This document shows positions 38,802 to 58,946 of a DNA stretch of 64,000 bases, in pieces. Position numbers and translations under genes: made by a program. Below the pieces are notes generated by a model. The model ran no database searches and was not told the DNA's origin. It worked only from the letters and a program-made list of their open reading frames with translations. The DNA lies in assembly GCA_963761335.1 (NCBI GenBank), contig CAVXGR010000009.1, positions 58,545 through 122,544 of the forward strand. The letters run 5' to 3'. The DNA is from an uncultured delta proteobacterium. Its GTDB lineage: Bacteria > Desulfobacterota > Binatia > HRBIN30 > BPIQ01. Position 1 is the first letter of the stretch; each line of letters starts with the position of its first letter.

Positions 38802-38841
38802 GCGTTGCAGATTTGCACCAATTGTGCGATTTTCTGCGCAT

Positions 38842-39955: not shown

Positions 39956-40064
39956 TGGGAGGGCGGCCGGCGCCGCCGCCTCTGCTCTTTGCCGCCACTT
40001 GCGACCGGGACGGCCGCGCTCCCGGGCGGTTGACGTGCGCCCCGCTCCGGCCGACGATCGAGCC

Positions 40065-41594: not shown

Positions 41595-41666
41595 GTGGTG
41601 GTCGATTGACGACAGCGTTGAGAGTCTACTGCTGCTGCGCTATAGGCGGGCGGAGGCGTCGACGAG

Positions 41667-42344: not shown

Positions 42345-42350
42345 TCCGGG

Positions 42351-43421: not shown

Positions 43422-46133
43422 ATGATGGAAGCGGAAGCGGTGCTCAGCGGGGATCTGCAAATCGTCTCGGATGCGGGGTCCGTGCAGGAAAATGGAAATC
43501 GCGCAGCGTACCCTGCCGGCATCGAGAAAACCGAAGCCTTCCAGTTCCTCACCTCCCTGGCACACCGCAAGACCGGCGCCATCCCCGCCTCGCTGCTGGC
43601 ACGACACGTCCTCGGCGTCACCGCCGACGCCGACTGGCCGGTGCGGCGCGCCGCGATGGATGCGGTTCTGCGCCGCTGCAGCTTCGGAAAGCAGGACCGC
43701 CTCGAGCTGGCGTCGGCGCCACGGGGTGTCTTCGGAGTCTATCGCACGCGGCGCGCCGGCTCATCGCAGCGTCCCTATGCGACCTTGTTGGCGAGCATCG
43801 ATCCGATTCGCGGCAGCTGCGACTGCCCGGACTACCTGCGCAACTCACTCGGGGTGTGCAAGCATCTGCTCACCATCGTCGAGTCTCTGGCCAAGAACAA
43901 GCGCCGCTTCAAGTCGGCCGTGGGCGCAGGAGGCGCCGGTCAAAACGGGTCTGTACGCCTCACCTGGGACCCGGTGCGGCCACTCAGGGCCGAGGGTGAC
44001 TGGATGAGCCGGGTGCAGCTGCTCGGCACCCGCGGTGCCGGCGTCAACGGCGCCGACCCGCTGGGCCGCCTCGCTCGGCGGTGGTTCCGCCGCCAGGCCG
44101 ACGGCGGGCTCGTCTTGGCGCACACGTACGCCGATCAGCCCGAGCGCCGCCTGGCCCTGGCGAAGGACCTGCACCTCGCGGCGGGCGCTGGCGGGCGCGG
44201 CGCGCGGCGCTGGCAGACTTCGGAGCCTGCAGTGCAGGCACTGCTCACCGCCGAGGTCAACCGCCTCCAGCGAGTGGTCGACGTGCGCGCGGCCGTGCCG
44301 GAGACCGAGCGGGCTCTGCGAAAGATGAAGCGCCGTCTCTACCCCTACCAGCTCGAAGGGGTGGCGCGGCTGCTCGCTTCGGGGCGCCTGCTGCTCGCCG
44401 ACGACATGGGGCTCGGGAAGACGGCACAGGCGATCGGCGCCTGCCACGCGCTCTGGGCAGTGGGGCGCGTGAAGCGCGGGCTGCTGATCGTGCCGGCGAG
44501 CTTGAAGCCGCAGTGGCTGCGCGAGTGGCAGTCGTTCACCGATGCGCCCGCCGCCGTGGTCGAGGGCGGCGCCGCGGAGCGCCGTTCCATCTACCGCGAT
44601 ACGCGCAGCGGCTTTCTCGTCGCCAACTACGAGCAGGTGCTGCGCGATCTCGAGGCGATGCACGCCTGGCAGCCCGACATCGTCGTCCTCGACGAGGCAC
44701 AGCGGATCAAGAACTGGGCGACGAAGACCTCGGCGTACGTGAAGCGCCTGCAGCCCGCCTATCGCTTGGTGCTCACCGGGACGCCGATGGAGAACCGGCT
44801 GGAGGAGCTCGCCTCGCTGCTCGACTGGGTCGACGACCAGGCGCTGGAGCCGAAGTGGCGCCTCGTGCCCTGGCACGCGGTGGCCGCCGACGGCTCCAGG
44901 GGTGTGATCGGCGCCCGCAACCTCGACACCCTCCGCCGGCGCCTGGCGCCGTGCATGATCCGCCGCGTACGCCAGGAGGTTCTGCGGCAGCTCCCGCCCC
45001 GGACCGACACCATCGTGCCCGTGCCGATCACCGACGAGCAGGCGCAGAGACACGACGAGCTCGACCAGCCGATCGCACAGCTCCTGCGCATCGCGCAACG
45101 CCGCCCGCTGAAGCAGAAGGAGTTTCTGCGCCTCATGAGTCTGCTCACCGCACAGCGGATCATCGCCAACGGCCTGGCGCAGGCGGACTTCGCCGGGGTG
45201 TGGCCGCAGATCGCCGGCGCCACCCGACCGGAAGGGGCACTGCTCGGCAGCCTCTCGAGCCCGAAGCTGCTCGAGCTGCGCGAGATCGTCTCGCAGGTGG
45301 CGCTGCAGCAGGGGCGCAAGCTGGTGGTCTTCAGCCAGTGGCGCCGCATGCTGACGCTGGCCAGCTGGGCGATCGCCGACCTGCTCGCCGACAACGGCTT
45401 GCGCTCCGCCTTCTTCACCGGCAAGGAGGGACAGAAGCGGCGAACGCACAACATCGTCGATTTCCACGATGATCCGTCCACGCGCGTGCTCTTCCTCAGC
45501 GACGCCGGCGGCGTCGGCCTCAATCTGCAGCACGCCGCCAGCTGTTGCGTGAACATCGAGCTGCCGTGGAACCCCGCCGTCCTCGAGCAGCGCATCGGCA
45601 GGATCTATCGCCTCGGCCAGAAGCGGCCGATCGACGTCTACAACCTGGTGACCGAGGACAGCATCGAGGCGCGCATCGCCGGCCTGGTGGCCGACAAGCG
45701 CGCCCTCTTCCGCGGCCTGTTCGACGGCGACAGCGACGAGGTCAGCTTCGACCGCTCCGGCTCGTTCCTGTCGCGGCTCGAGCAGATCGTCGAGCCGGCA
45801 CCGGAGCCCGACCTGCCGGACGACGCCGACGGTGGCCAGGAGGGGGAGACCCCGCTGGCGCGGGAGCTCGACGAGATCATCAGCGCCTCCGACGAGTCGC
45901 AGGACGCCGAGCTGGCGGCGGCACCGCCGCAGAGGGACGCTCCGGCGGTAGACGTGCCGTCCGCCCCGCTGCCCGCACCGGAGGTTCGCAACCTGTTCGC
46001 GCAGCTCCAGATTCGCCCCCGCGATGGCGGCGGCATGGTCATCGAGGCGCCGCCGCAGGCCGCGTCGACACTCGCGGCCCTATTCGAAGGCATGGCGCAG
46101 ATGCTGCGGACGGCGGCGCCGGAGGGAGAGTGA
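43422..46133 (+). CDS. SWIM zinc finger + SNF2-family helicase/ATPase
   Basis: CDCPD...CKH SWIM; LADDMGLGKT, DEAQRIKN, LTGTPMEN, WNPAVLEQRIGRIYR. Confidence 0.92.
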   Translation: MMEAEAVLSGDLQIVSDAGSVQENGNRAAYPAGIEKTEAFQFLTSLAHRKTGAIPASLLARHVLGVTADADWPVRRAAMDAVLRRCSFGKQDRLELASAPRGVFGVYRTRRAGSSQRPYATLLASIDPIRGSCDCPDYLRNSLGVCKHLLTIVESLAKNKRRFKSAVGAGGAGQNGSVRLTWDPVRPLRAEGDWMSRVQLLGTRGAGVNGADPLGRLARRWFRRQADGGLVLAHTYADQPERRLALAKDLHLAAGAGGRGARRWQTSEPAVQALLTAEVNRLQRVVDVRAAVPETERALRKMKRRLYPYQLEGVARLLASGRLLLADDMGLGKTAQAIGACHALWAVGRVKRGLLIVPASLKPQWLREWQSFTDAPAAVVEGGAAERRSIYRDTRSGFLVANYEQVLRDLEAMHAWQPDIVVLDEAQRIKNWATKTSAYVKRLQPAYRLVLTGTPMENRLEELASLLDWVDDQALEPKWRLVPWHAVAADGSRGVIGARNLDTLRRRLAPCMIRRVRQEVLRQLPPRTDTIVPVPITDEQAQRHDELDQPIAQLLRIAQRRPLKQKEFLRLMSLLTAQRIIANGLAQADFAGVWPQIAGATRPEGALLGSLSSPKLLELREIVSQVALQQGRKLVVFSQWRRMLTLASWAIADLLADNGLRSAFFTGKEGQKRRTHNIVDFHDDPSTRVLFLSDAGGVGLNLQHAASCCVNIELPWNPAVLEQRIGRIYRLGQKRPIDVYNLVTEDSIEARIAGLVADKRALFRGLFDGDSDEVSFDRSGSFLSRLEQIVEPAPEPDLPDDADGGQEGETPLARELDEIISASDESQDAELAAAPPQRDAPAVDVPSAPLPAPEVRNLFAQLQIRPRDGGGMVIEAPPQAASTLAALFEGMAQMLRTAAPEGE

Positions 46134-47384: not shown

Positions 47385-48188
47385 CTACTGGCGCCGCGCG
47401 ATGAAGCGTCCCTGGGCAACCTTGCCGGCGTGCGCCAATTCCCGGATGAAGGCGAACTCGCCGGCCACCGCCTGCAGCGCCTCCATGTTGAAGCCGATGA
47501 TTTTCAGCGCATCGAAGGTGAGCTGCATGTCGACCATGTTGAGATAGAGATCGATGTAGGCCGGAAAGCGCGCCGTGTCTTCTGCCGCCACCACCGTGCA
47601 GCCGTTCTCCTCGAGCAGTTGGCGATAGCCGGAAAGGTCCTGCACGTTGGCAAACTTCATTCCCTTCAGGAAGCGCTCCGCCTCCGCGTCCGAGAGACCC
47701 GACGGGCCCTCGATCCAGTCGGTGAAGGCGATCGTGCCGCCCCGTTTCACCAGACGCGCCGCCGCCGCGATGAGCTTCGGCTTGTCGGTCACGTAGCACC
47801 AGGCATCCTCCCCCCACACGAAGTCTGCGCTGCCGTCCGGCAGACCGCTGTTGCAGACGTCGCCGAGCACGAACTCAATGCGGTCATCGACGCCCTCTTC
47901 CTGACAGCGGGCGCGACCGCGATTCACCACCGTCTCGGTTGCATCCACGCCGGTCATCGCGGCGACGTCGCGGAAATGGACGAGGAAGCGCATGCCGGCG
48001 CCGTTGCAGCAGCAGAGGTCGACGCCGCGCATCCCCGCGCCGACACCCGCCCGCTCGGCCAGATCCATCGACGATTTGAAGCCGCCGATGTGGATCTGCT
48101 GGCCCATCAGAAGCTCCCACAGGTCTCCCTCCTGGCCGTTGTACACTGCGGTGACATCGTTCAGCCCGACGTTGTCAATGGATTTCAT
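47385..48188 (-). CDS. SAM-dependent methyltransferase (N-methyltransferase-like)
   Basis: IHIGG, DLCCCNGAG, DFVWGEDAWCY, IAFTDW. Confidence 0.8.
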   Translation of the reverse strand: MKSIDNVGLNDVTAVYNGQEGDLWELLMGQQIHIGGFKSSMDLAERAGVGAGMRGVDLCCCNGAGMRFLVHFRDVAAMTGVDATETVVNRGRARCQEEGVDDRIEFVLGDVCNSGLPDGSADFVWGEDAWCYVTDKPKLIAAAARLVKRGGTIAFTDWIEGPSGLSDAEAERFLKGMKFANVQDLSGYRQLLEENGCTVVAAEDTARFPAYIDLYLNMVDMQLTFDALKIIGFNMEALQAVAGEFAFIRELAHAGKVAQGRFIARRQ

Positions 48189-48378
48189 GCGCGCTTTTCC
48201 TCCAACGCGCACTCCCTACCGAATGGTTGGAAGGCCGGATATGACCGCGATCACGCGATGCGACGACGAACATCAGCGCGAACACATGATCATTCATCCT
48301 TGGACCGCGGCTCGGTGACCCCAACAGCGGTCACTTCCCGCCCCTCGCCAGAGGCGCCCGTGGGCGAAGACGGCGCTC

Positions 48379-49134
48379 TCAGCCGCCCAGCTTGCTGAGC
48401 ATGAAAGAAATGAGAAACCCGGCGACGGTGATCAAGCCGGCGAAGTCGTGGGCGATGGAGAATGCCTCGGGGATCATGGTGTCGACGAGCATCGCCAGGA
48501 TCGCGCCTGCGGCCGTGGCGATGGTCGCCGCGATGAGGCCCGGGGAGGAGCCGTCGAAGGCCCAGTAGCCAAAGAGCGACGCGACCCCGGAGAGAGCCGT
48601 GATACCGCCCCAGACGCCGAAGATGTACGCCGCGGGGCGGCCCGCCTTCTTCATGCCGGCGACGCTCGAGAGTCCTTCGGGAACGTTCGAGAGGAAAATT
48701 GCCGCCACGGCCACCAGGCTCACGGAGCCGCCCTCGAGCAGGCCGAGGCCGATGACCATGGACTCGGGAACCCCGTCGAGCAGGGCACCGACGGCGATCG
48801 CCAGGCCGCTGCCATTCTCCTCCTCCTCGGACGGCTGCTGATCCCCGGAGCGTTTTCGGTGGCGCGCACCGCATCGCGCCAGCAACCAGTTCGCGGCGGT
48901 GTACACCACCGCTCCCCCGAGGAAGCCCGCCGCAGTGCCCGCGAAGCCGCCGCGGCGATAGGCATCGTCCATGAGCTCGAAGGCCAGTGCCGATATGAGG
49001 ACCCCGCTCCCGAAGGCCATGATCGCCGCAATCAGACGCTGCGGCACCTCCATCAGGTAGGCCACCGCCGCGCCGATCAGCAGCGCGCAGCCGGCCAGCA
49101 GCCCCCAAAGTCCCGCTTCGACCCAAACTGGCAT
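48379..49134 (-). CDS. ZIP family metal transporter
   Basis: MAFGSGVL, LDGVPES, SNVPEG, DTMIPEAF. Confidence 0.9.
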   Translation of the reverse strand: MPVWVEAGLWGLLAGCALLIGAAVAYLMEVPQRLIAAIMAFGSGVLISALAFELMDDAYRRGGFAGTAAGFLGGAVVYTAANWLLARCGARHRKRSGDQQPSEEEENGSGLAIAVGALLDGVPESMVIGLGLLEGGSVSLVAVAAIFLSNVPEGLSSVAGMKKAGRPAAYIFGVWGGITALSGVASLFGYWAFDGSSPGLIAATIATAAGAILAMLVDTMIPEAFSIAHDFAGLITVAGFLISFMLSKLGG

Positions 49135-49281
49135 CGGGCAACTTTCTACATCGTCCAGGACTGCCGCGTCGAGACACACAGCGTGCCCATCGATCCTGGA
49201 AGCGCTCGCGTTCGCCGATGCCACATGTTCGCCTGTGCCACATTGACTGCCCCTGCCCGTTTACCTAGAGTCCGCCCCGTC

Positions 49282-49545
49282 ATGCCGAAAGCAGGCGACG
49301 GTACCGAATCGCGCTTCGTCTGGCGGCTGGTCGACGACGAAGCGTTGATCTTCGACCTCCGGTCGGGCGGCTTCTTCTCCCTCGATCGCGTCGGGGCCGA
49401 GGTTTGGACGGGGCTCCAGGGCGGATTGGAGCTGGCGCAGATCGTGCGCGAGATCGCGGGGAAATACGGCGTCGACGAGCAAACGGTGCAGCAAGACGTA
49501 TCCGAGCTGCTCGACGAGCTGAGCCGGGAAGGATTGATGGAGTGA
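49282..49545 (+). CDS. PqqD family / RiPP recognition element (RRE) protein
   Basis: 87 aa: WRLVDDEALIFDLRSGGFFSLDRVGAEVW...IVREIAGKYGVDEQTVQQDVSELLDELSREGL. Confidence 0.9.
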   Translation: MPKAGDGTESRFVWRLVDDEALIFDLRSGGFFSLDRVGAEVWTGLQGGLELAQIVREIAGKYGVDEQTVQQDVSELLDELSREGLME

Positions 49546-49548
49546 GCA

Positions 49549-49713
49549 ATGGCCAAGGCAGACCGCACCTCGACCGAGAAACGCGGAGACAAAGCGGAAA
49601 AGACTCCTCCTGAACCCCGTCACCCTGCGGCGACCCCGGTGTACGAGAAGCCGCGTCTCCGGCGCTACGATCAGATCGACCAGGTCAAACCCTACGGCCC
49701 GACCGAGATCTGA
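49549..49713 (+). CDS. Putative RiPP precursor peptide, 54 aa: MAKADRTSTEKRGDKAEKTPPEPRHPAATPVYEKPRLRRYDQIDQVKPYGPTEI
   Basis: Translated by hand (below the ORF-track cutoff); ATG 3 nt after the PqqD stop, preceded by GGAG; YxxPxL RRE-binding motif. Confidence 0.8.
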   Translation: MAKADRTSTEKRGDKAEKTPPEPRHPAATPVYEKPRLRRYDQIDQVKPYGPTEI

Positions 49714-49736
49714 GAACCGGCTCGCCCCAGTTCTGG

Positions 49737-51377
49737 CTAGAGAAGCTTCTGGATCTCGACGGCGCCGCGCGCGATGAGCTCGCGGAGCTCTTCGAGATGG
49801 CGCGCCTCGAGATCGGGATAGGGCCGCACGTCCGTGTCCGAGATGATCTCGATGTCGCGCAAGGAGAAACGAGCCAGTAGATCGCCGGCCGCCGCTTCGA
49901 TCTCCCGCGCCAGCGCCGCCGCCCGGCCGCCGCGCTCCGCCGCTCGGCGCCGAAGCTCTGTCAGCGTCTCCAGGTACCTCAGGTCGTAGAGTCCCGCGCT
50001 GAGGCCCTTCCACTGCAGCGTCGGAACACTGCCGCGCCGGGCCGGATAGGTCGCCAGGTGATCCTTGAGGGGGTGCCCTCCCGAGACAGCCCGCTCGTGA
50101 CTGTCCCATTCGTCGAAGTCGTCGTACGGCGAGTACGGGTGCTCCGGCAGATGCTGGTAGCAATACGGCGCGATCCCGTCGGCGCCGCTCTTCCAGAAAT
50201 AGATTCCCGCCAGCACGCGGTGCACGAGCGGCTTCTCCATGTGCGCGTGCCAGTAGAAATAGGTCGGGCGCCGCCGCAGCTCCGGAGCCTCGGACAGCAA
50301 AGAGAAGTACTCGCGGTTGCGCGGCAGGTAGTACAGCAGGATATCCGGCGGATGCCCGATATCGCCGGCGTCGAACAGGCGCCGCGCGAATTGCTGTTGG
50401 ACGAGCGCGCACATTGTCGGTACTCCCCGGCGCTTCGCCTCGCGGGTTTTGGCGATGTGCGCGGCCACGGCGTCAGGTCCGCGTGTGTCCATCTCGTCGC
50501 TGACATAGAGAACCGGCTGCATGCCGTGGAAGTCGACGGCGTCCAGCCGCGGCGGGTACGGATCCGTGAGCACGACTCTGCCCCGGAAACCGATCGCATA
50601 CGCGATGTCGACGGCGCGCTGCAGCAGCTCGGGGTCGCCCTCACCCAGCGAGATCGTGCGGAAGCCGTGCGCGTAGATGTCCTCCAGCTGCGTCCGGAAC
50701 AGCTCTTCCGACAGGTAGAAGCGCGGCCGCCCGCAGTCGAGGGTGCCGCGATACCAGAGAAAGCAATCGCGCCCGGACTCCGCCAGCATGAGCGGCAGCA
50801 CTTCGACCTCCAGCGGCAGGTCGGCGCTGCCGAGCGCCGGCACCACGGAGCGGACGCGCAGCGCGCCGCAGTAACGTCCCACCGCTGCGCCCGTGGGAAT
50901 GCGCAGGGCGATCCACAGCTGTTGCGTTCCATTTCGGTCGAGCGCGGTGCGCGCGGCGCCGTGCAGGCGCAGATCCGGCGGCGTGTAGAAAGGACCGCGC
51001 CGCCGATAGTGCCGCCAGTGCCTGCAACGGCCGCCGTACCCATCGCGCAGATCGGCATCCGCGTCCTTGAGTAGCAGCTCCGCGACCCGTACGCGGCTCG
51101 ATTGATAGACCCCGACCCCGGCCTGGTCCCATTCCCGGACGGCGAAGACATCGATCGCGGCGCTCGGGATGACGCCGCCGGCGTCGTCGCGCAAGTCGGA
51201 GACATCGATGACCACGTCGCGCATCGCCTCGCGGGCACGGAGAGACACGGACAGCGACACCATCTCACCCCGGCAACCGGTCCCGCTCAGTCGCGAGATC
51301 GGCGTCGCATCAGCCGCCGGGGCGCCGGGCAGGTGACGGACAAGGGCCAGCCACGGCGGCGGCTCCGCGATGGTCAT
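49737..51377 (-). CDS. Glycoside-hydrolase-like protein (GH123/DUF4091-like architecture), function unknown
   Basis: N-terminal RGE.VS.SVS beta-sandwich-like region, QLWIALRIP...GRY.G, C-terminal WKGLSAGLYDLRYL; no signal peptide. Confidence 0.5.
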   Translation of the reverse strand: MTIAEPPPWLALVRHLPGAPAADATPISRLSGTGCRGEMVSLSVSLRAREAMRDVVIDVSDLRDDAGGVIPSAAIDVFAVREWDQAGVGVYQSSRVRVAELLLKDADADLRDGYGGRCRHWRHYRRRGPFYTPPDLRLHGAARTALDRNGTQQLWIALRIPTGAAVGRYCGALRVRSVVPALGSADLPLEVEVLPLMLAESGRDCFLWYRGTLDCGRPRFYLSEELFRTQLEDIYAHGFRTISLGEGDPELLQRAVDIAYAIGFRGRVVLTDPYPPRLDAVDFHGMQPVLYVSDEMDTRGPDAVAAHIAKTREAKRRGVPTMCALVQQQFARRLFDAGDIGHPPDILLYYLPRNREYFSLLSEAPELRRRPTYFYWHAHMEKPLVHRVLAGIYFWKSGADGIAPYCYQHLPEHPYSPYDDFDEWDSHERAVSGGHPLKDHLATYPARRGSVPTLQWKGLSAGLYDLRYLETLTELRRRAAERGGRAAALAREIEAAAGDLLARFSLRDIEIISDTDVRPYPDLEARHLEELRELIARGAVEIQKLL

Positions 51378-52573
51378 CGGGCGCCCAGATCCTGCATTGC
51401 CGGGCCGCTGTGACGCTCGAGCAGCTCCCCGGCAATCAGCTCGTCGATCAGCTCGTCGAGATCGGCCGCCGCGGTCGCCGTGGGTATGTCGTATTCGGTC
51501 GCGACCCAGCTGAGAACTTCGTCCCGGGCGCGCTCGCAGGCGAGAAGTCGCCAGACACGGTCTGCCGTGCCGTCGAGCACAAAGCGCTGGCGCGCACCCG
51601 GCTGCACGACGACGGATCTCGGTCGATCATCGTAGAGCCAGTAGAGCGCCTGCGGCGAGATGCGCAACCGCATCCTTTGGGTCCACGTGAACCACGGCCT
51701 GAAGGCCGCGTCGACAGCGCTCGGCTGGATCGGCTCGAGCGGCGGCGCGAGACCGAAGCGCTGGGCCAGCCGCTGGAAGCGGAAGCCGAGACGGTAGCTG
51801 AGCGATTCCAGGACCTCTTCCGGGCGGCGGCCCAGGTGGACGTCTCGAAACGTGGTCCGCGCACCATGCGAGAGATACAAAGCCTCGATCTGCGCCGCAC
51901 CGCGCCCATACCAGAATCCCTTGGTGACGAAGCGCAGCCAGGAGCGGCCCTCATAGTGCGTGGCCGGTGCGCCCTCCACGTAGCCGAGGCGGTAGCCGCG
52001 CGCGATGATTCGCCATGACAGCTCGACGTCCTCGCAGGCGACGAGACGCTCGTCGAACCCCCCCACGCCTTCCAGCGCCGCACGCCGGTACATACAGCTC
52101 CCCGTCGACAGCCACGGGAAGAGATCGCGCTCGCCGCGGACGGAATTCGCCGCGTCGCGTTCGGCCGACTGCGCCGGCGAGCGCTCCAGGTAGCGTTGCA
52201 CGCGCGCGTCGAGTGCCCGGTGGTCGGTTCGGCCCTGGCAGCCGCCGAGCCGAGGATCGTCGAAGCGCCCCGCCAACCGCCGCACCCAGTCCGCGCCGAC
52301 GACCACGTGCGCGTCGAGAAAGGCGACGAGGGCCCCGTGCGTCGCCCGCAGCCCGGCGTTGCGGGCGGCGCCCCGGCCTCGCCGCGGCTCCGGCAACACC
52401 TCGGCACCGTGTGCGGCGGCGACGCAGGCAGTGGTGTCCGTCGAGGCGTTGTCGACGACGCAGATTCGCAGCGGCCCGGGATAGTCCTGCCGGCGGAGCG
52501 CGTCGACGCAGGCCCCGACGCGACCGGCTTCATCGCGCGCCGCGATGATCACGTCGACGGCGGGAGCAGACAT
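51374..52573 (-). CDS. GT2 glycosyltransferase fused to a C-terminal PqqD/RRE domain
   Basis: VVDNASTD, AARNAG, FLDAH, GGFDE...EDVELSWR; C-term FVLDGTADRVWRLL...YDI...ADLDELIDELIAGELL. Confidence 0.85.
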   Translation of the reverse strand: MSAPAVDVIIAARDEAGRVGACVDALRRQDYPGPLRICVVDNASTDTTACVAAAHGAEVLPEPRRGRGAARNAGLRATHGALVAFLDAHVVVGADWVRRLAGRFDDPRLGGCQGRTDHRALDARVQRYLERSPAQSAERDAANSVRGERDLFPWLSTGSCMYRRAALEGVGGFDERLVACEDVELSWRIIARGYRLGYVEGAPATHYEGRSWLRFVTKGFWYGRGAAQIEALYLSHGARTTFRDVHLGRRPEEVLESLSYRLGFRFQRLAQRFGLAPPLEPIQPSAVDAAFRPWFTWTQRMRLRISPQALYWLYDDRPRSVVVQPGARQRFVLDGTADRVWRLLACERARDEVLSWVATEYDIPTATAAADLDELIDELIAGELLERHSGPAMQDLGAR

Positions 52574-52591
52574 GGGAACGCCCATCCCGAA

Positions 52592-53614
52592 TCAGCCGGA
52601 AAGCTCCGAGTCGAGCAGCGCCGGCAGCCGGGGCAGATCATGGTCCGCGAACTCCAGGACATACAGGCGCGCGTCGCGGACGAGCGCGGCGACGGCGGCC
52701 AGGATGAACTCGCTGTACTGAGCGAAGGGATAGGGGGCCGAGCGAAACGGGCGCGCCCGAAACACGGTCATGGTTTCGCGCAGCAGGTCCTCAAGGGCGC
52801 GACCGCGGTCGAGCTTCGACAGAGTGGGCCGGGCCACCGGACCTCGCCGCAGCTGGATGAAGTCAGTGACCCGGCTCGGCTCCCGCCAGGACGTCCCGCG
52901 CGGAAGTTGTCCGAGGCGCACCGCCCACTTCCCGCCTTCATCGCGCTCGCCCACGACCTGCGGCTGAAGCGCCGGGAACATCCGCAGCGTGGCCTCGGTG
53001 ACATGCAGGGCATCGAGCGAGGCGAGCGCATAGGCGCAATCGCCGTCGAGGGTGATCAGTGTGCGGTCATCCGAGAGCAGATCGTAGCCGGCGAACAAGA
53101 GCTGGACTGCCGTCGTCGATTTCCCCGCTCCCGGCGCACCGGCCAGCAGAAGCGTCCGCTCGCCCCTGCGGAGCCCGGCGGCATGGATCGTTGCCAGCCG
53201 GTAGAAGGGCATCAGGAAGCCTTTGAGAATCGGCCGGACGACGTAGGCGAGCACCCATTGGGGGCTCTCCGTGTATCGTCCGGCGAGATTCGCTCGCACG
53301 ACGTCGTCGTCGAGACCGTACTCCATCTCGTGCCAGAGGTGCGCATGGTTCTCCGAATAGAACCGCCCGGCCTCGTAGTAGCAGGGGCCGAGCCCCAGAT
53401 GCGTCTCCGCGAAGGCGCCGCGCTCCATCGCCGCGATCGGCAGGGCGTGCTCGGAATCCTTGCGCTCGAGGAGGATCCGCAGCCGTCGCACGTGCGCGGG
53501 GAAACGGCTGGTCAGATCGTTCGACACGTACAACCGCTCCACCCACGGAGCGAGGTCGAGGCTACGACTCTCGATATCGAGTCTCAGAAAATGAAGGACG
53601 AGCTCGGTCTTCAC
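52592..53614 (-). CDS. HPr kinase-like P-loop kinase
   Basis: IHAAGL...LLLAGAPGAGKSTT...LLSDD motif set. Confidence 0.8.
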   Translation of the reverse strand: MKTELVLHFLRLDIESRSLDLAPWVERLYVSNDLTSRFPAHVRRLRILLERKDSEHALPIAAMERGAFAETHLGLGPCYYEAGRFYSENHAHLWHEMEYGLDDDVVRANLAGRYTESPQWVLAYVVRPILKGFLMPFYRLATIHAAGLRRGERTLLLAGAPGAGKSTTAVQLLFAGYDLLSDDRTLITLDGDCAYALASLDALHVTEATLRMFPALQPQVVGERDEGGKWAVRLGQLPRGTSWREPSRVTDFIQLRRGPVARPTLSKLDRGRALEDLLRETMTVFRARPFRSAPYPFAQYSEFILAAVAALVRDARLYVLEFADHDLPRLPALLDSELSG

Positions 53615-55010
53615 GGATGTCTTCCGGATGGAGCAGGCGGTCGATGGTGACAGCGAGCTGGTCGCTCCCCGCCAGCGCCAGGGTCAATCTGCAGAGATCG
53701 TACTTCGCTCTGAAGGCGTCGTAGTACTGGGTGTGAGGACACTCCGCTCGGGCCCCGAAGGCGTCGCGCAGCGCACGGAGCCGCTCGAACGAGTCGTCCG
53801 ACAGCCGCTCCTCCGCGACGACCGTCCGCAGCACGGCGTCGAGCTCTGCCGCGAGTGCCTGGAACTCCTTGAAGACGGTTATCGGCGTGAGGCTTCCCTG
53901 ATCCTCCAGATCGCTCAGCAGCCGGCGCATGGCCGCGGGATCGACGGGGCCGGCACTGCGGTACGAGCGGTCGATCTCGGCGATTGCGGCGCGAAAGCGC
54001 CGCAGCGATTCGTCCCAGTCATAGGCGGATCGTATGGTGTCGAATCCTCCCCGCCGCACACGCTCCTTCAGCGAATCGTCGCGCAGCAGCGACGCGAGCC
54101 TGGCGTGGAGATCCTGCGGATCGTTCGGACGGGCGAGCACGAGGTTGACGCCGTCGATCCCGTAATCGGACACGCCGTAGGTGCGGGTCGAGACCACCGG
54201 CACGCCGCAGGCAAATGCCTCGAGGGCGGGGAGCCCCAACCCCTCATACCAGGAGGTGCAGCAGTAGACGTCGCAGGTGCGCAGAATGCCCGGCATCTCC
54301 TCCTCGGTTGGGCAGTGGTGGATCTCGACCGGAAACGGCAGCCCGTCGAAGAGCCGCCGCCCGCGCTTTTCCTGCGTGACCAGCACGAGCTCCACCGGCC
54401 TCTCGACCGAGAGGCGCCGGAGCGCCTCGATGCCGTCCTTCATTCCCTTGTAGGGCATCAGGTAGTTGCCGACCATCAGCACGCGCGCCCGCGCCGCGAG
54501 CCTGGCTGGGCGCGGAGACACCGAGAAAATCGTCTTGTCGATGCCGACCGGCACATGGATCGATTCCTTGCCCAGTCGCTCTTTGATGAGGCGCTGCACC
54601 GCTCGCGAGCTGGCGATGATCGGCACCGGCAGGCGGTAGAGGTTGGCGAACGCCGGGGATTCCGCCATGAAGTCCGCGAATGTCGGGCCAGCGGCGTGGT
54701 GGAACGCCTCGTAGTCCTGGCAGAAGAAGATCGCCCGCGCCCTGCCCAGCAGCGGCAGGACCATCGGCAGGAGAAAGGCGTTCGCGACCAGCACGAAGTC
54801 GTAGCTGGGCAGGTCGGCTTGTTCGAGATCGCGCATCGGCAGGAGCGGTGCGCGAAGCCTGCACCAGCGCGGCGGACCGGCGAAGGAGAACAGATGGACC
54901 GACTCGTCGACGTCTGCCAGGCGATTGGCGATCTCGAATACGACCTTCACCCCGCCGCTGAGCGCAGTCGTCGGTAGACAGAAGAGGAGCCGCTTACGAG
55001 CACCGTCCAT
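53562..55010 (-). CDS. GT4 glycosyltransferase (WsaF-like N-terminus)
   Basis: SGGVKVVFEIANRL, FCQDYE, KG..DG, SWYEGLGLPALEAFACG. Confidence 0.88.
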   Translation of the reverse strand: MDGARKRLLFCLPTTALSGGVKVVFEIANRLADVDESVHLFSFAGPPRWCRLRAPLLPMRDLEQADLPSYDFVLVANAFLLPMVLPLLGRARAIFFCQDYEAFHHAAGPTFADFMAESPAFANLYRLPVPIIASSRAVQRLIKERLGKESIHVPVGIDKTIFSVSPRPARLAARARVLMVGNYLMPYKGMKDGIEALRRLSVERPVELVLVTQEKRGRRLFDGLPFPVEIHHCPTEEEMPGILRTCDVYCCTSWYEGLGLPALEAFACGVPVVSTRTYGVSDYGIDGVNLVLARPNDPQDLHARLASLLRDDSLKERVRRGGFDTIRSAYDWDESLRRFRAAIAEIDRSYRSAGPVDPAAMRRLLSDLEDQGSLTPITVFKEFQALAAELDAVLRTVVAEERLSDDSFERLRALRDAFGARAECPHTQYYDAFRAKYDLCRLTLALAGSDQLAVTIDRLLHPEDIREDRARPSFSETRYRES

Positions 55011-55091
55011 CGCTGGCGATACTAGCGGCAACCGCCGACGTCCGGAAGTAGACGACTTCTGATGGCACTGCCCTAACTTGGGCTGGGGGAT

Positions 55092-55311
55092 CGCGCCGCG
55101 AAGCGGCGCAGGCATGTAGCCCCGGGTCGGAGACCCGGGGATCCCGGGTCCGCCTTCCCCGATGCGCCCCGCCAGGGGCGCAGGCGTGCAAGCCCGGGGG
55201 CAGAGGCCTGTGTCAAAACCGCGCCCGCGCCCCTGGCGGGGCGCCAACGGACGTCGCCTTCGGGATCCCCGGGTCTCGACCCGGGGCTACACGCCTGCGC
55301 CCCTCCGGGGC
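55092..55311. repeat. GTAG-type REP-like doublet with an internal GAGGCCTGTGTCAAAAC end, between divergent operons
   Basis: GGCATGTAGCCCCGGG...CCCGGGG and its inverted partner CCCGGG...CCCGGGGCTACAC. Confidence 0.7.
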
Positions 55312-55399: not shown

Positions 55400-56446
55400 A
55401 TGTCCGATTCCGACGCAAGACCGATCGTGAGTCTCTGCCTGGGGGCGTACGCCGGCGCCGATCGGGCGGCAGCAAATCTGTCCCTCACCACCGGGCTCTC
55501 CCGCCACGTCACGCTCTCGAGCTCGGATCCGCGCAGCCCCGAGGTCGCTTTCATGGTCGCCCACCTGCGCGAGCGGCGTCCGGCGCTGGTGATCTTCAAT
55601 GGCTGGAGCGCCGTCTACGCGAGCATCCTCACCGCCTTGCGCCGCCAACCGATCCGGTTCGCCGTCCTCTGGCACAGCAGTCCGGGCCAGACTGATCTGT
55701 CGGACGAGTGGCCGGCGCTGTCGGAGATCATCGGCAACCGCCGCATCGCGCACCTGCTGTTCGCCAACGAGTCGCTGCGCGAGACACTTGCCCCGCGACT
55801 GCGGAACACCCACCATCTTCCCGACACGCTCGCGGAAGCCGAGTGGGAGGGCCAGCGTGAGGATCATCCCCCTTCCCGCACCGGTCGCGCGCGGCGCGCG
55901 CAGATCACGCTCTTCGCCCAGCCGGCCGAGGCGGCGCGCAAGAACATCACCGGCTGCTTGCTGGCGCTCTCCAGCCTGCGAAGCCGAATCGTCCTCCATC
56001 TCAATGGGCTGTCGCACCAGCCGCGCTACCGCATGCTGCTCGACCTGCTCGGCATCCGCTACCGGGACTGGGGCTGGATGGAGCCGCAGCGGTACGCGGC
56101 GGTCGTGGGCGCGGCCTCCGTCGGCCTGCAGGTGTCGTTCGCCGAGACGTACGGGTACGTCGTCGCCGAACATCTCGCACGCGGCGTCCCGACCGTCGGG
56201 ACCTCTGCGGTTCCGGTCCTGGCGCGATTGTCCCCGGCCGTGCGCCGTCGTCTGATGGTCACCAACCCCGACGATCCCGGCGAGATTCGCGCCAAGCTGC
56301 GCTTCCTGCTCGACCATCCTCGCCTTGCGGCGACGGTCGGCGAGCGCGCGCGCCTCGAGTCGTCCCGCTGGAACCGGCGGGACATCGCCAAGGCGACTGA
56401 CGTCCTGCAGGCGCTGCTGTCGCAGAGAGGCAAGCTGGCATCATGA
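55400..56446 (+). CDS. GT-B (GT4-like) glycosyltransferase
   Basis: RKNI, QVSFAETYGYVVAEHLARGVP. Confidence 0.75.
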   Translation: MSDSDARPIVSLCLGAYAGADRAAANLSLTTGLSRHVTLSSSDPRSPEVAFMVAHLRERRPALVIFNGWSAVYASILTALRRQPIRFAVLWHSSPGQTDLSDEWPALSEIIGNRRIAHLLFANESLRETLAPRLRNTHHLPDTLAEAEWEGQREDHPPSRTGRARRAQITLFAQPAEAARKNITGCLLALSSLRSRIVLHLNGLSHQPRYRMLLDLLGIRYRDWGWMEPQRYAAVVGAASVGLQVSFAETYGYVVAEHLARGVPTVGTSAVPVLARLSPAVRRRLMVTNPDDPGEIRAKLRFLLDHPRLAATVGERARLESSRWNRRDIAKATDVLQALLSQRGKLAS

Positions 56447-56724
56447 GGCAGTGCCGCAACCAGCCGCGATTTGTGGTGAGCCCCACCATCGCGCACCGCG
56501 AGATCGGCGGCACGCTGCTGCTCCTGCTGCCCGGCGACAGTCGTCTCTATGCGTTCAACGATACCGGACGCCTGGTCTGGCGCGGCCTGCTGCGCAAGCG
56601 CAGCACCGCGAGCATCGCCGCGACGATTGCCAGAACCTTCGGGATTCCCCTGCCGCGCGCCGAGCGGGATGTGCACGATCTGCTCGAGGATCTGCTGCGC
56701 CGCGGGGCGATCCGCCGTCTCTAG
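56443..56724 (+). CDS. PqqD family / RRE protein
   Basis: REIGGTLLLL...LYAFNDTGRLVWRGL...IA..F.I...AERDV.DLLEDL.RRGAI. Confidence 0.88.
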   Translation: MRQCRNQPRFVVSPTIAHREIGGTLLLLLPGDSRLYAFNDTGRLVWRGLLRKRSTASIAATIARTFGIPLPRAERDVHDLLEDLLRRGAIRRL

Positions 56725-56777
56725 AGAGGGCCGTCCTTGCGCCGAGCGAGCGAGGTTTGCCATACTCCGCCGGCCGC

Positions 56778-57923
56778 ATGACGGAACCGATCGCCCAGAC
56801 CGTCGACCCGTCGCCGGCGCCGTTCGCCGTCTGCACGATCATCTGGAAGAACTACCTCGCCCACGCGCGCGCGCTCGGCCAGTCGCTTCGCGCCCAGCAT
56901 CCCGACATCCCCTTCATCGTGCTCCTCGCCGATCGTGTCGACGGCTACTTCGACGCCGCCCGCGAAGACTTCGAGGTCGTCGAGATCGAGCAGCTCGGCA
57001 TCCCGGAGGTGCGACGGTTCTGCTTTCAGTACTCTCCGTTCCTGCTCAACACGGCGGTGAAACCGTGGTTGCTTGCCTACCTGTTGGCACAGCGCGGAAT
57101 GCGCCGCGTGCTCTATCTCGATGCCGACATCCTGGTGCTCGATTGTCTCGCCGATCTCGCCGCGCTGCTCGACCGCTACTCGATCGTATTGACCCCGCAC
57201 CTGACGGCGACGGCCACGGACCCGTACACGGTCGCCAGCGTCGAGCGGGCGATGCTGCTCTTCGGCGCCTACAACCTCGGCTTCATCGGCGTCGGACGGT
57301 CCGAGACCACGGATCGATTCCTCGTCTGGTGGCAGGACCGCCTGCGGCGGGACTGTCTCCTGGATCCGCCACGGGGCCTGTTCGTTGATCAGAAGTGGAT
57401 CGATCTGGTGCCCGGGCTCTTCGACGGCGTCCACGTCCTGCGCGATCCGACGTACAACGTGGCGCGCTGGAATCTCCATTCCCGAGCCCTCACCATTCGG
57501 GACGACCAAGTGCTCGTCGACGGCATGCCGTGCCGATTCTTCCATTTCAGCGGCTTCGATCCTCGCTGCGGTGAGGTGGCGAAGGGCAATCGGTTCTACA
57601 CGTTCGAGCGGCTCGGCGAGGCGGCAGTCCTGTATCGGCGCTATGCCGAGATGCTGCACCGCAACGGCTTCGCGGACACCATCAACTGGCCGCAGGCATT
57701 TTCGGTCTTCGACAACGGTGTGCCGATCCCCGATGAGCTGCGGATGCGGTACCTGGCGATGGGTGACGAGGTCGCGAAGTTCGGCGACCCGTTCGCCAGC
57801 GCGCCGCCCGACAGCTTCTACTGCGCCTGGCGCGCCGAGCAGGCCGGCCTTCGACCACTGGTCGATCGGCTGCGACGGACCGTGGCGCGCGCCGCCTGGC
57901 GCGTTCATACAAGACTCCGATAG
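56778..57923 (+). CDS. GT-A glycosyltransferase (GT8-like)
   Basis: CTIIWKNYLAHAR, NTAVKP, YLDADI, YNLGF, DQKW.DL, YNVARWNL, FFHFSG. Confidence 0.85.
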   Translation: MTEPIAQTVDPSPAPFAVCTIIWKNYLAHARALGQSLRAQHPDIPFIVLLADRVDGYFDAAREDFEVVEIEQLGIPEVRRFCFQYSPFLLNTAVKPWLLAYLLAQRGMRRVLYLDADILVLDCLADLAALLDRYSIVLTPHLTATATDPYTVASVERAMLLFGAYNLGFIGVGRSETTDRFLVWWQDRLRRDCLLDPPRGLFVDQKWIDLVPGLFDGVHVLRDPTYNVARWNLHSRALTIRDDQVLVDGMPCRFFHFSGFDPRCGEVAKGNRFYTFERLGEAAVLYRRYAEMLHRNGFADTINWPQAFSVFDNGVPIPDELRMRYLAMGDEVAKFGDPFASAPPDSFYCAWRAEQAGLRPLVDRLRRTVARAAWRVHTRLR

Positions 57924-57932
57924 GCTCGCCGG

Positions 57933-58946
57933 ATGGTGCCTCCCCGCTTGGCGCGCCTGCGCTATCTGATCGTGGCGCCGGCGTTCCAGGCCTGGGATCT
58001 CGGCCGCTACTGCGAACGCCTGCTGCGCGCCGATCGCCTGGCGTGTGCGACCTTCGCCTACGGCGAGCGCCCGGGTGCGGAGCAGGAGACCCGGCTGCTG
58101 GAAGCGGTGCAACAGTTCCGTCCCCACATCGTCCTGGCGCTCAAGCTCCAGGGTATTCGGCCGCAGACGCTCGCGGCGATCCGCCGGCACGCCTTCGTCG
58201 CCCTCTGGTACGTGGACTGCTTCGGCGAATTCGTGCCCCGGTGGCTTGCCCCCCTGCTCGCCCATGTCGACATCTTCTTCACCAGCGCCGCCGGCTTGGT
58301 GCCGCTCTATCAGCGGCACACCGCCGCGCCGGTTCGCTGGGTGTACGAAGGCGTTCATCTGCCGAGCTTCCCGCGGCTGCGCGAGTCGACCGAGCGGCTC
58401 GCAGCGTATCGCAGCGAGGTGGCGTTCGTCGGTAACGTCCGGCACTCCGTCACCGCCACGCCGGCGACGCGCCAGCGCCTGCTGCTCGCCGTCCACCGCC
58501 GCTTCGATCTGCGGATTTGGGGACCGCAGGGACTTCCGTTGGACGCGCGCACGCGGCGGCTGCGGGTGACCGAGTGGCCGGCCTACAATCGAGAGCTCGC
58601 CCGCATCTGCGCCGCCGCCGCGATCGTGCTCGGCATCAACGAAGTGAACACGGTGGAGCGCTACTTCTCGAACCGCACCTTTCTCACTCTCGCCAGCGGC
58701 GGCTTTCACCTGACGCGTTACGTCCCCGGGCTGGAGCGCATGTTCGAAAATCGCCGGCACCTGGTCTGGTTTCATTCCGACGACGAGTGTCTCGAGCTGA
58801 TCCGCTATTACCTGCCGCGGCCGCGCGCGCGCCACGCCATCGCGCGACGTGGCCAGGCATGGACGCGACGGCGATACGGCATGCGCCGGAGCTGGCGGCG
58901 GATACTCGCGGCCATCGACGACGTCTACCCGCGGCGCGGCCCCTGA
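57933..58946 (+). CDS. CgeB-like glycosyltransferase (Glyco_trans_1_2)
   Basis: LWYVD, VAFVGN, LRIWG, IVLGIN...SNRTF..LASGGF.LT. Confidence 0.8.
   Translation: MVPPRLARLRYLIVAPAFQAWDLGRYCERLLRADRLACATFAYGERPGAEQETRLLEAVQQFRPHIVLALKLQGIRPQTLAAIRRHAFVALWYVDCFGEFVPRWLAPLLAHVDIFFTSAAGLVPLYQRHTAAPVRWVYEGVHLPSFPRLRESTERLAAYRSEVAFVGNVRHSVTATPATRQRLLLAVHRRFDLRIWGPQGLPLDARTRRLRVTEWPAYNRELARICAAAAIVLGINEVNTVERYFSNRTFLTLASGGFHLTRYVPGLERMFENRRHLVWFHSDDECLELIRYYLPRPRARHAIARRGQAWTRRRYGMRRSWRRILAAIDDVYPRRGP

Follow-up and report, generated by a model that had tools for sequence, protein, structure and literature searches.

The window, a DNA stretch of 64,000 nucleotides, carries a small peptide gene directly behind a stand-alone PqqD-type RiPP recognition element (RRE) and convergent with a row of glycoside-hydrolase-like, glycosyltransferase and kinase genes (Table 1). 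The sequence-only reading had placed an unlisted ORF 3 nt past the PqqD stop, and the coordinates bear this out: the ATG lies at 49549, preceded 6 nt upstream by GGAG, and the TGA stop at 49711-49713. A listing includes the ORF only with a length threshold under the default of 60 aa. It encodes 54 residues, MAKADRTSTEKRGDKAEKTPPEPRHPAATPVYEKPRLRRYDQIDQVKPYGPTEI, and the conserved block from Y32 to I54 reads YEKPRLRRYDQIDQVKPYGPTEI.

Table 1 Features of the peptide locus, in window coordinates
Feature	Position	Strand	Basis and remarks
Promoter-like site TTGACT-17-TAGAGT	49243..49271	+	ends 10 nt before PqqD ATG; consensus match only
Stand-alone PqqD-type RiPP recognition element (87 aa)	49282..49545	+	Pfam PqqD 3.1e-17
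Peptide gene (54 aa)	49549..49713	+	variable N-terminal ~30 residues, then invariant C-terminal block
Conserved 23-codon block, Y32 to I54	49642..49710	+	YxxPxL RRE-type motif, then invariant YDQI..V..YG
GH123-fold glycoside-hydrolase-like protein (546 aa)	49737..51377	-	convergent with peptide gene; Pfam Glyco_hydro_123_N_2 4.6e-8
GT2 glycosyltransferase with C-terminal PqqD/RRE fusion (403 aa)	51374..52585	-	Pfam Glycos_transf_2 3.1e-23, PqqD 2.1e-9
HprK-like P-loop kinase (340 aa)	52592..53614	-	Pfam Hpr_kinase_C 1.3e-3, P-loop region only
GT4 glycosyltransferase	53562..55247	-	longest ORF 561 aa; Pfam Glycos_transf_1 1.4e-22
Divergent four-gene set	55400..58946	+	Pfam
GT4-like gene	55400-56446	+	divergent set
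Second stand-alone PqqD	56443-56724	+	divergent set
400-aa protein without family	56721-57923	+	divergent set
Glyco_trans_1_2 gene	57933-58946	+	divergent set

A search of protein collections yielded 40 relatives of 49-64 aa, and 23 related loci were retrieved from Abditibacteriota, Acidobacteriota, Acidimicrobiia and metagenomes, so that the family spans soil bacteria that are only distantly related. One of these loci, L029, belongs to the complete genome AP024152.1, which carries the cassette. In an all-against-all HMMER search, 12 of 14 matches were small peptides of this family; the remaining two (850 aa, top E 2.6e-15) are unrelated repeat proteins that match the low-complexity part of the query and were discarded. 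Across 24 unique blocks Y32, K34, P35, Y40, D41, Q42, I43, V46, Y49 and G50 are invariant and position 37 is always L or I. The lasso-type YxxPxL motif and the RRE-adjacent, precursor-like character that the sequence-only reading had assigned to the peptide hold. Of the positions whose conservation it proposed to check, the motif and the C-terminal Tyr and Thr, Y32, P35, L/I37 and Y49 are kept, while position 52 varies (S in 19 blocks, T in 2, R in 2 and D in 1). Position 47 is K or R, with A in one block, and the peptides end 0-3 residues beyond the block. 'Leader' and 'core' are equally invariant, so conservation does not single out the six-residue core of that reading.

Among 20 unique DNA versions of the 23-codon block, mean pS is 0.83 and mean pN 0.086 (ratio 0.10), and each invariant residue is encoded by at least two synonymous codons. 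The low pN/pS, saturated synonymous sites and conserved start therefore point to a selected gene. The short length and the GC-rich genome, in which spurious ORFs are common, might suggest that the ORF arose by chance or is untranslated sequence separating PqqD from the convergent gene. Against this stand the pN/pS ratio, the synonymous codon use, a start codon kept beside the PqqD stop in 23/23 cases and the lack of any Rfam family match at the site, which leave a chance origin next to no probability. Judged by its coding signature, the small ORF is a real gene. The peptide matches nothing in Pfam or NCBIfam and only unnamed clusters in the ESM Atlas (0.81-0.83). A BLAST-type search of 40 related genomes returned noise (best E 0.0047, within long ORFs or with stops), and the peptide profile gave zero matches across 400 further genomes from this phylum. 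The GC content is 0.66-0.71 throughout, with no compositional sign of recent transfer. Among sequencing runs containing this stretch, no RNA run is listed; six DNA rows from three studies are, the best with 0.34 of the sampled words.

In 22 of the 23 related loci the gene immediately upstream of the peptide is PqqD, and in these loci and the window (23/23) the peptide ATG falls within -17 to +19 nt of the PqqD stop. The peptide shares PqqD's frame in only 7 of the 23, the other 16 having the two genes in different frames. Translation running through the in-frame TGA from PqqD into the peptide was thus rejected as a general mechanism, and the peptide is a separate gene. The promoter-like site upstream of PqqD occurs once, against 0.0 expected from 50 shuffles. 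If active, it would give a PqqD-peptide transcript almost without a leader. A profile built from 19 family members places PqqD nearest to TbiB1 (5v1u, 3.4e-18), then TfuB1 (3.6e-9), with a weaker match to the 'PqqD family protein' chain of 9x8z (7.7e-6). Against the NCBIfam lasso PqqD models the protein scores 46.6 and 45 bits, under the cut-offs of 70 and 80.

Binding to an RRE, as the sequence-only reading had envisaged, was modeled for the stand-alone PqqD, and here the predicted complex scored 0.53 compared with 0.02 for the best control. The runs share at least 83% of contacts, with a partner pLDDT of 58. In calibration, 116 of 157 solved complexes attained the same mark, as did 2 of 215 mismatched pairs; scores of 0.60 or less occurred in only 18 of the 157 solved complexes, but in both of these mismatches. 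The pass may also reflect likeness, because like complexes have been solved (5v1u/5v1v). The model thus hints that the peptide may bind the stand-alone PqqD.

The GT2-PqqD fusion on the opposite strand, whose PqqD domain spans residues 325-388 (Pfam), has homologs in each of the 18 related loci of sufficient length. GAPGAGKST occurs in the HprK-like kinase, which has homologs in 14 related loci (E 1e-57 to 1e-101). GT4 homologs occur in 13 related loci, with E values down to 1e-182 and alignments covering query residues 84-558. They align only from residue 74-85 on, so the true GT4 start probably lies downstream of the TTG. The fusion, a kinase of this type and a GT4 come after the peptide in every locus whose contig extends far enough. 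The AlphaFold model of the GH123-like protein (pLDDT 68, pTM 0.75) has only GH123 structures as top Foldseek matches (5l7u, E 1.2e-17, TM 0.5), and 6 of the 7 homologs aligned retain an S-D-E motif. Known targets of GH123 enzymes are beta-GalNAc and beta-GlcNAc, which gives a hint of the sugar. This gene is not core, since homologs are present in only 10 of the 23 loci. For the divergent four-gene set, no homologs at E <= 1e-5 were found in the 23 related loci, and it is uncertain whether it belongs to the peptide's pathway. Its 400-aa protein does not resemble PF14907. Between 46 and 64 kb, including near the second PqqD, no further small ORF with YxxPxL lies in a plausible frame. The cassette is surrounded by many glycosyltransferases, resembling a polysaccharide locus.

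Lasso leaders follow the consensus YxxPxLxxxGxxxxxT with Thr at -2, and lasso cores begin with a small residue and carry Asp or Glu at position 7-9. The peptide resembles a lasso precursor in having YxxPxL at the usual spacing and an adjoining PqqD-type RRE, whose nearest solved relatives are the B1 proteins of TbiA-TbiB1 (5v1u/5v1v) and TfuB1 (6jx3). With Y32 taken as -17, P35 and L37 fall on the motif, D41 on the Gly site and K47 on Thr(-2), leaving YGPTEI; the earlier arithmetic, with six residues left over, is correct. Asp or Glu lies 7-9 residues from none of the plausible cut sites except after L37. The Asn-synthase-type lasso cyclase (PF00733) is absent from the 122-kb contig, with eight genome matches on other contigs, and the B2 leader peptidase (Transglut_core3, PF13471) is likewise absent from it, with one genome match on contig C12. 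Neither domain was found among the ORFs scanned in five of the related loci (L028-L032). That this is not a lasso substrate, as the sequence-only reading had concluded, is therefore upheld: the contig has no cyclase, B2 or SipW-type peptidase, and the remaining residues suit a lasso core neither in number nor in kind. A lasso precursor served by a cyclase and peptidase encoded elsewhere in the genome could draw on the motif, the B1-like RRE and the Asn-synthase-like genes on other contigs. It is exceedingly unlikely in view of the missing domains, the lost Thr(-2), the six residues after the leader and a family that keeps one non-lasso gene set across four phyla. Paeninodin-type tailoring has an HprK-like kinase modify a hydroxyl close to the C-terminal end of a precursor bound by an RRE. 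The present cassette has such a kinase together with a precursor-like peptide for an RRE, as in those phosphorylated or glycosylated lasso peptides; unlike them, it lacks the lasso core enzymes and is dominated by GT2 and GT4 transferases. In the available text of PMC13381572, paeninodin-like lasso peptides are usually tailored by a kinase together with an NTP transferase, and [Y/W]xxPx[L/V/I/F/A] is given as the motif of leaders.

The same source describes what is, going by that text, the closest known system to the peptide cassette: the linear polyphosphorylated peptides (LPP) of Bacillota, encoded by lppA-K-B-S-D-N (Popov et al., Nat Commun 2026, PMC13381572). Both are linear and cyclase-less, use lasso-type parts with a free-standing RRE, a kinase of HprK-like type and a [Y]xxPx[L/V/I] motif, often include a PF14907 NTP transferase and have glycosyltransferase genes around them. 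LppK polyphosphorylates a Ser 18 residues past the leader Tyr (PMC13381572), and here Y49 and S/T52 lie 17 and 20 residues past the motif Tyr. The Ile 11 residues past this Tyr fits the LPP logo YxxPxVLxHQxIxFETxxS (PMC13381572) without gaps. These likenesses, together with PF14907-like homologs in 6 of the 23 related loci, speak for an ordinary member of the LPP family, which we nevertheless judge very unlikely. As described, the LPP motif is N-terminal, shares only Y, P, a hydrophobic residue and the Ile with the peptide and precedes a variable core of 35-200 aa, whereas the peptide stops just past its C-terminal motif and its block is nearly invariant across phyla. The GT2 fused to a second RRE, which the LPP set as described lacks, and two GT4s are core genes here. 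PF14907 is absent from the window's contig, with five copies elsewhere in the genome. The SipW-like leader peptidase and MsbA-like pump of LPP had no counterpart in the searches either: the SipW-type model (TIGR02228) finds nothing on the contig and one sub-threshold genome match on C12, an S24-like query finds nothing in the window or the 23 related loci, and no peptidase was found in the cassette there. The ORFs called between 43 and 64 kb, and those scanned near the peptide in L028-L032, include no ABC transporter and no MsbA-like pump. In addition, the PqqD profile lies nearer TbiB1 than 9x8z, and the hosts are Abditibacteriota, Acidobacteriota and Acidimicrobiia, while LPP is described as Bacillota-restricted (PMC13381572).

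Mycofactocin (MftA, the MftB RRE and the GT2 enzyme MftF) likewise has a short, strongly conserved peptide next to a PqqD-type RRE, and MftF (TIGR03965) is the best-scoring NCBIfam model for the GT2 fusion (2.8e-39). However, its 135 bits stay far under the cut-off of 280, the GT2 here carries its own RRE and the peptide ends in TEI rather than the Val-Tyr of MftA. No radical-SAM domain, as MftC has, was found among the scanned ORFs. The MftF-dependent sugar chain sits on a tyrosine-derived hydroxyl according to the available text of PMC7491314. Of the HPr-rel-A models, the kinase model TIGR04352 matches at 1e-11 and 44.5 bits (cut-off 200) and the PqqD model TIGR04353 at 31.2 bits (cut-off 35), so that the HprK-like kinase and PqqD stay under every curated NCBIfam cut-off. 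Fusions of RREs to PF00535 glycosyltransferases have been noticed as a class (mSystems 2025, PMC12710340) and, in the available text of that study, are named without a substrate peptide or pathway; the present locus supplies a candidate substrate and a conserved gene set.

The same genome encodes three PqqD proteins with [YF]xxPxLxxY C-terminal tails. These fused-tail ('self-leadered') cassettes also combine PqqD, HprK-like kinase, PF14907 and glycosyltransferases, and their tail, [YF]xxPxLxxYxDMxDLL, resembles YEKPxLRRYDQIDQV of the peptide. hhalign of the peptide family against 12 PqqD tails gave a probability of 47.8 and an E value of 1.9e-4 over 20 columns, while a simple search with the peptide returned no tail at E <= 10. 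In the fused proteins the motif forms the C-terminal tail of the chaperone itself and here it has a gene of its own, and the distal halves differ (LDPIHEVD..GWP or LDPPxP in the tails versus KPYGPSEL in the peptide). A search found no fused form of this peptide, which is weak evidence. In evolutionary terms the peptide resembles a split version of the 'self-leadered' PqqD proteins as well as a cousin of LPP.

As in RiPP precursors, the peptide is encoded by a small gene beside an RRE, carries an RRE-type motif and has co-inherited tailoring enzymes. We consider it rather probable that it is the ligand of a conserved RRE-kinase-glycosyltransferase cassette, serving most likely as its substrate, and becomes a linear product that carries sugar and/or phosphate near Y49 and S/T52. 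The gene layout indicates that PqqD and peptide are made from one transcript with coupled translation. The YEKPxL segment would then dock on the PqqD recognition element as lasso leaders and, as described, LPP leaders do; TbiB1 homology and the shared motif suggest this step, and the predicted complex hints at it. Docking may present P48-Y49-G50-P51-S/T52, 17-21 residues downstream, to the tailoring enzymes, by analogy with lasso geometry and that described for LPP. The GT2 with its own RRE and/or the HprK-like kinase could modify a hydroxyl in that segment, with invariant Y49 as the best candidate acceptor and S/T52 as the second. The GT4 enzymes, joined in many relatives by the PF14907 nucleotidyltransferase, might extend the modification to a glycan or phosphoglycan. 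The product probably stays linear and retains its leader, because the cassette is without cyclase, leader peptidase and exporter. That no peptidase was found in the cassette, in the window or the 23 loci, fits the proposal of the sequence-only reading that the peptide may remain uncleaved and serve as a carrier.

With a kinase and glycosyltransferases as neighbours, hydroxyl modification is the natural guess. The sequence-only reading had nominated the Tyr and Thr hydroxyls, and the neighbours and the invariance of Y49 (also of Y40) agree with it; Thr52 is not fixed, and the R and D residues at this position show that it is not an obligatory acceptor. LppK rejected Thr or Tyr in place of its Ser in the experiments described (PMC13381572), which weakens the idea of a kinase acting on Tyr. 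Invariance of the whole block is equally expected of a peptide that only binds several partners. Such a peptide would bind RREs without ever being modified and act as a small adaptor or regulator, for instance by plugging RRE-bearing enzymes in the manner of a leader and so switching or bridging them; the real substrate of these enzymes would be a sugar polymer, a lipid or a different protein. All 23 block residues are constrained, many of them without a reactive side chain, the cassette has neither peptidase nor exporter, its setting with many glycosyltransferases is polysaccharide-locus-like, and related systems have the motif fused to the chaperone itself. We still regard this role as unlikely: enzyme-fused RRE domains are known for substrate delivery (PMC12710340, available text), three invariant Tyr and a mostly conserved S/T sit at the positions modified in lasso and, as described, LPP systems, and no non-substrate RRE ligand came up in the literature consulted.

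A more specific role, as a reusable protein primer or carrier for glycan building, is quite unlikely. The RRE-fused GT2, kinase and GT4s would build a glycan or phosphoglycan on the invariant Tyr49, and the GH123-like protein, taken as cytoplasmic, would release the glycan in the window's subfamily. Such a route would account for the missing leader peptidase and exporter and for the frozen block. It would amount to ribosomal-peptide-templated oligosaccharide synthesis, with a logic akin to glycogenin priming or pearlin-type synthesis of small molecules on scaffold peptides.

The substrate reading bears on pathway discovery. RRE-dependent pathways are mined mainly via core enzymes such as cyclases and radical-SAM enzymes, and cassettes of a chaperone with 'tailoring' enzymes only are therefore treated as substrate-less orphans. 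For one such orphan the peptide would supply the missing substrate candidate: tiny, usually unnamed, frozen across at least four phyla and tied to an RRE-bearing glycosyltransferase. It bears on what the widespread kinase-glycosyltransferase-PqqD cassettes make and on RRE-guided peptide glycosylation, possibly on Tyr, beyond the lasso, glycocin and mycofactocin systems. It also joins LPP clusters, RRE-GT2 fusions and those PqqD proteins that carry leader tails of their own, three things seen separately so far. No description of this peptide or cassette was found in a literature search run without subscription journals and bioRxiv supplements; in the sources and literature searched, the pathway is undescribed and unnamed.

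A duplicate on contig C28 differs from the window's contig (C9) by 25 mismatches in 3142 nt, 0 of them within the peptide gene, and this copy is uninformative on selection because the peptide gene is identical in both. The homology between the two contigs begins at 49229, just 5' of the promoter-like site.

The 54-codon ORF begins with an ATG at 49549, 3 nt after the TGA of the PqqD-family gene, as the sequence-only reading had placed it, and encodes MAKADRTSTEKRGDKAEKTPPEPRHPAATPVYEKPRLRRYDQIDQVKPYGPTEI. A GGAG lies 6 nt 5' of this ATG. The G+C content of the window is 68.8%, with an even profile along the region. A sigma-70-like site, TTGACT-17-TAGAGT at 49243-49271 (1 found vs 0.0 expected), stands 10 nt 5' of the PqqD start. 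The -10 hexamer ends 10 nt before that ATG, with no intervening Shine-Dalgarno sequence (49243-49281); the PqqD-peptide message may be leaderless.

Gene order in the window, from GC3 statistics combined with Pfam and NCBIfam scans, and related features elsewhere in the same genome (G000, contigs C4, C12 and C16)
Feature	Position	Strand	Match
Methyltransferase	47385-48212	-	
281-aa membrane-like protein	48379-49224	-	
PqqD, 87 aa	49282-49545	+	Pfam PqqD, E 3.1e-17
Peptide	49549-49713	+	
546-aa protein (GH123-like)	49737-51377	-	weak GH123 N-domain match
GT2 fused to C-terminal PqqD domain	51374-52585	-	best NCBIfam model MftF, 135 bits (cut-off 280)
HprK-like P-loop kinase	52592-53614	-	TIGR04352, 44.5 bits (cut-off 200)
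GT4	53562-55247	-	
Second module: GT4-like, second stand-alone PqqD, 400-aa protein without family, Glyco_trans_1_2 protein	55400-58946	+	
Further glycosyltransferases	beyond 58946		
PqqD with own tail	G000:C16:352758-353252		
PqqD with own tail	G000:C4:13548-14558		
PqqD with own tail	G000:C12:808021-808467		
Paralogous cassette: PqqD, 51-aa peptide, GT2-PqqD, S24-like peptidase, HprK-like kinase, GT4	G000:C12:496054-500813 (locus L054, 6054-10813)	one strand	

A word-indexed protein search returned 40 relatives of the peptide, every one 49-64 aa long, and an index-free HMMER search gave 14 matches, 12 of them small peptides of the family. The other two, 850-aa repeat proteins aligning only to the low-complexity part of the query, were discarded. 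The relatives are 'hypothetical' or nameless in their source databases, and Pfam, NCBIfam and Rfam gave no family match for the peptide. Pattern scans fetched 18 metagenomic and five genomic loci, the latter from two Abditibacteriota and from MAGs of Pyrinomonadaceae, Terriglobales and Acidimicrobiia. In the alignment the N-terminal half is variable and the C-terminal block (23 codons, Y32 to I54) almost frozen. Among the 24 loci, window included, this block occurs in 20 different DNA versions with a mean pairwise pS of 0.83 vs a pN of 0.086, and all or several synonymous codons are in use at every invariant residue. Judged by these substitution patterns, the peptide gene is genuine and strongly constrained by purifying selection.

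Together, the database proteins and the loci yielded 24 unique blocks, in which Y32, K34, P35, Y40, D41, Q42, I43, V46, Y49 and G50 are invariant; 11 carry a three-residue extension, mostly EAG. Conservation of YxxPxL and of the C-terminal Tyr and Thr had been put forward as a check: Y32 and P35 as well as Y49 hold in 24/24, but position 52 is Thr in only 2, with S in 19, R in 2 and D in 1. The proposed lasso-type spacing is accurate, as Y32, P35 and L37 match YxxPxL and six residues (YGPTEI) remain. So are the departures from the lasso consensus, with D41 at the expected Gly and K47 at the expected Thr(-2). The family is rare and patchy. Neither 40 genomes from its order and family nor 400 others sampled from the phylum yielded a match. 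Among 185,579 species genomes scanned for the exact pattern, five species carried it; the pattern required [RK]YDQIDQV, so diverged members would escape.

Comparison of the window proteins by phmmer with all ORFs of the 23 loci shows that the peptide is coupled to a lasso-type RiPP recognition element (RRE) and co-inherited with a GT2-RRE fusion, an HprK-like kinase and a GT4. PqqD is directly upstream of the peptide in 22/23 loci, and every one of the 18 loci long enough to show it has the GT2-PqqD fusion; the remaining five, contigs of 1.3-2.1 kb, break off within the GH123-like gene, with gene order as in the window. The kinase occurs in 14 of the 23 and the long GT4 in 13. Counting the window and the 22 PqqD-bearing loci, the peptide ATG lies -17 to +19 nt from the PqqD stop in 23/23 and is in the PqqD frame in only 7/23, which argues for translationally coupled but separate genes; stop-codon read-through as a rule was rejected on the same frame count. 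One metagenomic locus (L043, 3482-6709) has an unrelated 943-aa repeat protein in place of the stand-alone PqqD. As it retains the GT2-PqqD fusion, kinase and GT4s, the fused RRE may suffice there.

The other neighbors are less constant. The GH123-like gene was found in 10/23 loci and is accessory, since several others, with flanks of as much as 10 kb (L032, L039, L043, L044, L046), did not yield it. A PF14907 nucleotidyltransferase homolog occurs in 6/23 (L028-L031, L038, L039) and not in the window; the 23 loci contain neither an S24-type peptidase nor counterparts of the four second-module genes. GH123 enzymes employ neighboring Asp and Glu residues, and an S-D-E motif is retained in 6/7 aligned homologs of the 546-aa protein. 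Its model (pLDDT 68, pTM 0.75) matches GH123 beta-N-acetylgalactosaminidases over the whole length in Foldseek (E 1.2e-17, TM about 0.5); no signal peptide was obvious on inspection.

The lasso and LPP (linear polyphosphorylated peptide) core enzymes are missing. Searches of the 122.5-kb contig for the B2 peptidase and cyclase families of lasso clusters, for the SipW-type signal peptidase model and for PF14907 gave no match, which bears out the earlier claim that a B2 peptidase is absent, and Pfam scans of loci L028-L032 revealed no B2 peptidase, cyclase or SipW-type peptidase either. By the published definitions the cluster therefore belongs to neither the lasso nor the LPP type. A profile of 19 family PqqD proteins matched best the lasso chaperone TbiB1 (E 3.4e-18), then TfuB1 (3.6e-9) and two 2026 entries, 'Lasso peptide biosynthesis PqqD family chaperone' (5.8e-9) and 'PqqD family protein' (7.7e-6), compared with 2.8e-4 for PqqD proper. 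Popov et al. (PMC13381572) describe LPP precursors with YxxPxVLxHQxIxFETxxS, in which the Ser 18 residues past Tyr is polyphosphorylated, and clusters sitting among polysaccharide genes in a family given as Bacillota-only. Overlaid without gaps on this logo, the peptide has the same Tyr, Pro, hydrophobic residue and Ile at +11, with Y49 at +17 and S/T52 at +20. RREs fused to PF00535 glycosyltransferases are reported as a newly seen combination in a 2025 mSystems article (PMC12710340), and in mycofactocin the MftF-dependent sugar chain is carried by the tyrosine-moiety hydroxyl (PMC7491314).

We propose that the YEKPxL segment would dock on the RRE(s) and thereby offer the distal PYGP(S/T) segment to enzymes, which would glycosylate and/or phosphorylate a hydroxyl there and then extend it, giving a linear product with the leader retained. 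Y49 would be the favored acceptor because it is invariant, with S/T52 second. On a bolder and less probable reading, the peptide would be a primer for a glycan later released by the GH123-like enzyme. The main rival is that the peptide may serve solely for binding. Co-folding of the PqqD alignment with residues 24-54 of the peptide alignment weakly suggests that binding occurs, scoring 0.53 vs 0.02 for the best control, with at least 83% of contacts shared between runs and a partner pLDDT of 58. In the benchmark the mark was reached by 116/157 solved complexes and 2/215 mismatched pairs, with only 18 of the 157 and both mismatches at scores of 0.60 or below. Since RRE-leader complexes have been solved, the pass may reflect likeness to these rather than binding by this copy.

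Searching all ORFs of the genome with a PqqD-family HMM revealed three PqqD proteins with their own leader-like tail, reading [YF]xxPxLxxYxDMxDLLxLDP... and adjoining HprK-like kinase, PF14907 and GT genes; nine more occur in related genomes (L058-L064, L066, L067). Profile-profile comparison of the peptide family with the 12 tails (probability 47.8, E 1.9e-4, 20 columns) pairs pVYEKPxhRrYDQID with pYxxPxLxxYxDM, which is suggestive of a relationship between block and tails. A plain search retrieved no tails at E <= 10, and the protein collection held no fused form of the peptide, which is weak evidence. The paralogous cassette on C12 has the architecture of the window plus a peptidase and resembles the LPP layout in print more closely than does the cassette in the window. 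Its unlisted 51-aa peptide (L054 6694-6849) is preceded by a strong GGAGGA and ends ...KVYQKPVLSKHEQLHGIGLGSP. A matching PqqD-peptide pair exists in a related genome (G032, locus L056), the peptide ending ...KPYQRPQLQKHEQLRRIGLGYL. At the LPP acceptor position, 18 residues past Tyr, these two peptides have Ser or Tyr.

Window positions 49229-52370 recur at 99.2% identity on a 6.8-kb contig of the same genome (C28:3635-6776). This 3.1-kb stretch is a second copy or else reflects strain variation in the assembly. It covers PqqD, the peptide and the GH123-like gene in addition to part of GT2-PqqD; the other half of the contig carries PqiA-type genes and an ABC-transport auxiliary lipoprotein. 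Homology starts at 49229, at the promoter-like site.

The longest GT4 ORF starts at TTG, and homologs align only from residue 74-85 (mostly 84-85), so its 561-aa length is probably too long; at its opposite end it overlaps the kinase gene by 53 nt. The second stand-alone PqqD (56443-56724) overlaps the GT4-like gene and the 400-aa protein gene by 4 nt each, and no second precursor-like ORF was found near it. DUF3417/alpha-glucan-phosphorylase-type genes lie no more than a few kb from the cassette in the Terriglobales locus (L032 10363-13068) and next to a tailed-PqqD cassette of the window's genome (L053 2934-5711), which may be coincidence or may point to glucan chemistry. Further upstream, the window encodes a RES-domain toxin paired with an Xre-type antitoxin (38746-39955). 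Next come a 652-aa protein that matches SagB-type dehydrogenases (39636-41594) and two SAM methyltransferases (41667-43034); the stretch at 38746-43034 may be an unrelated peptide-modification set. A SNF2 helicase is encoded at 43422-46133.
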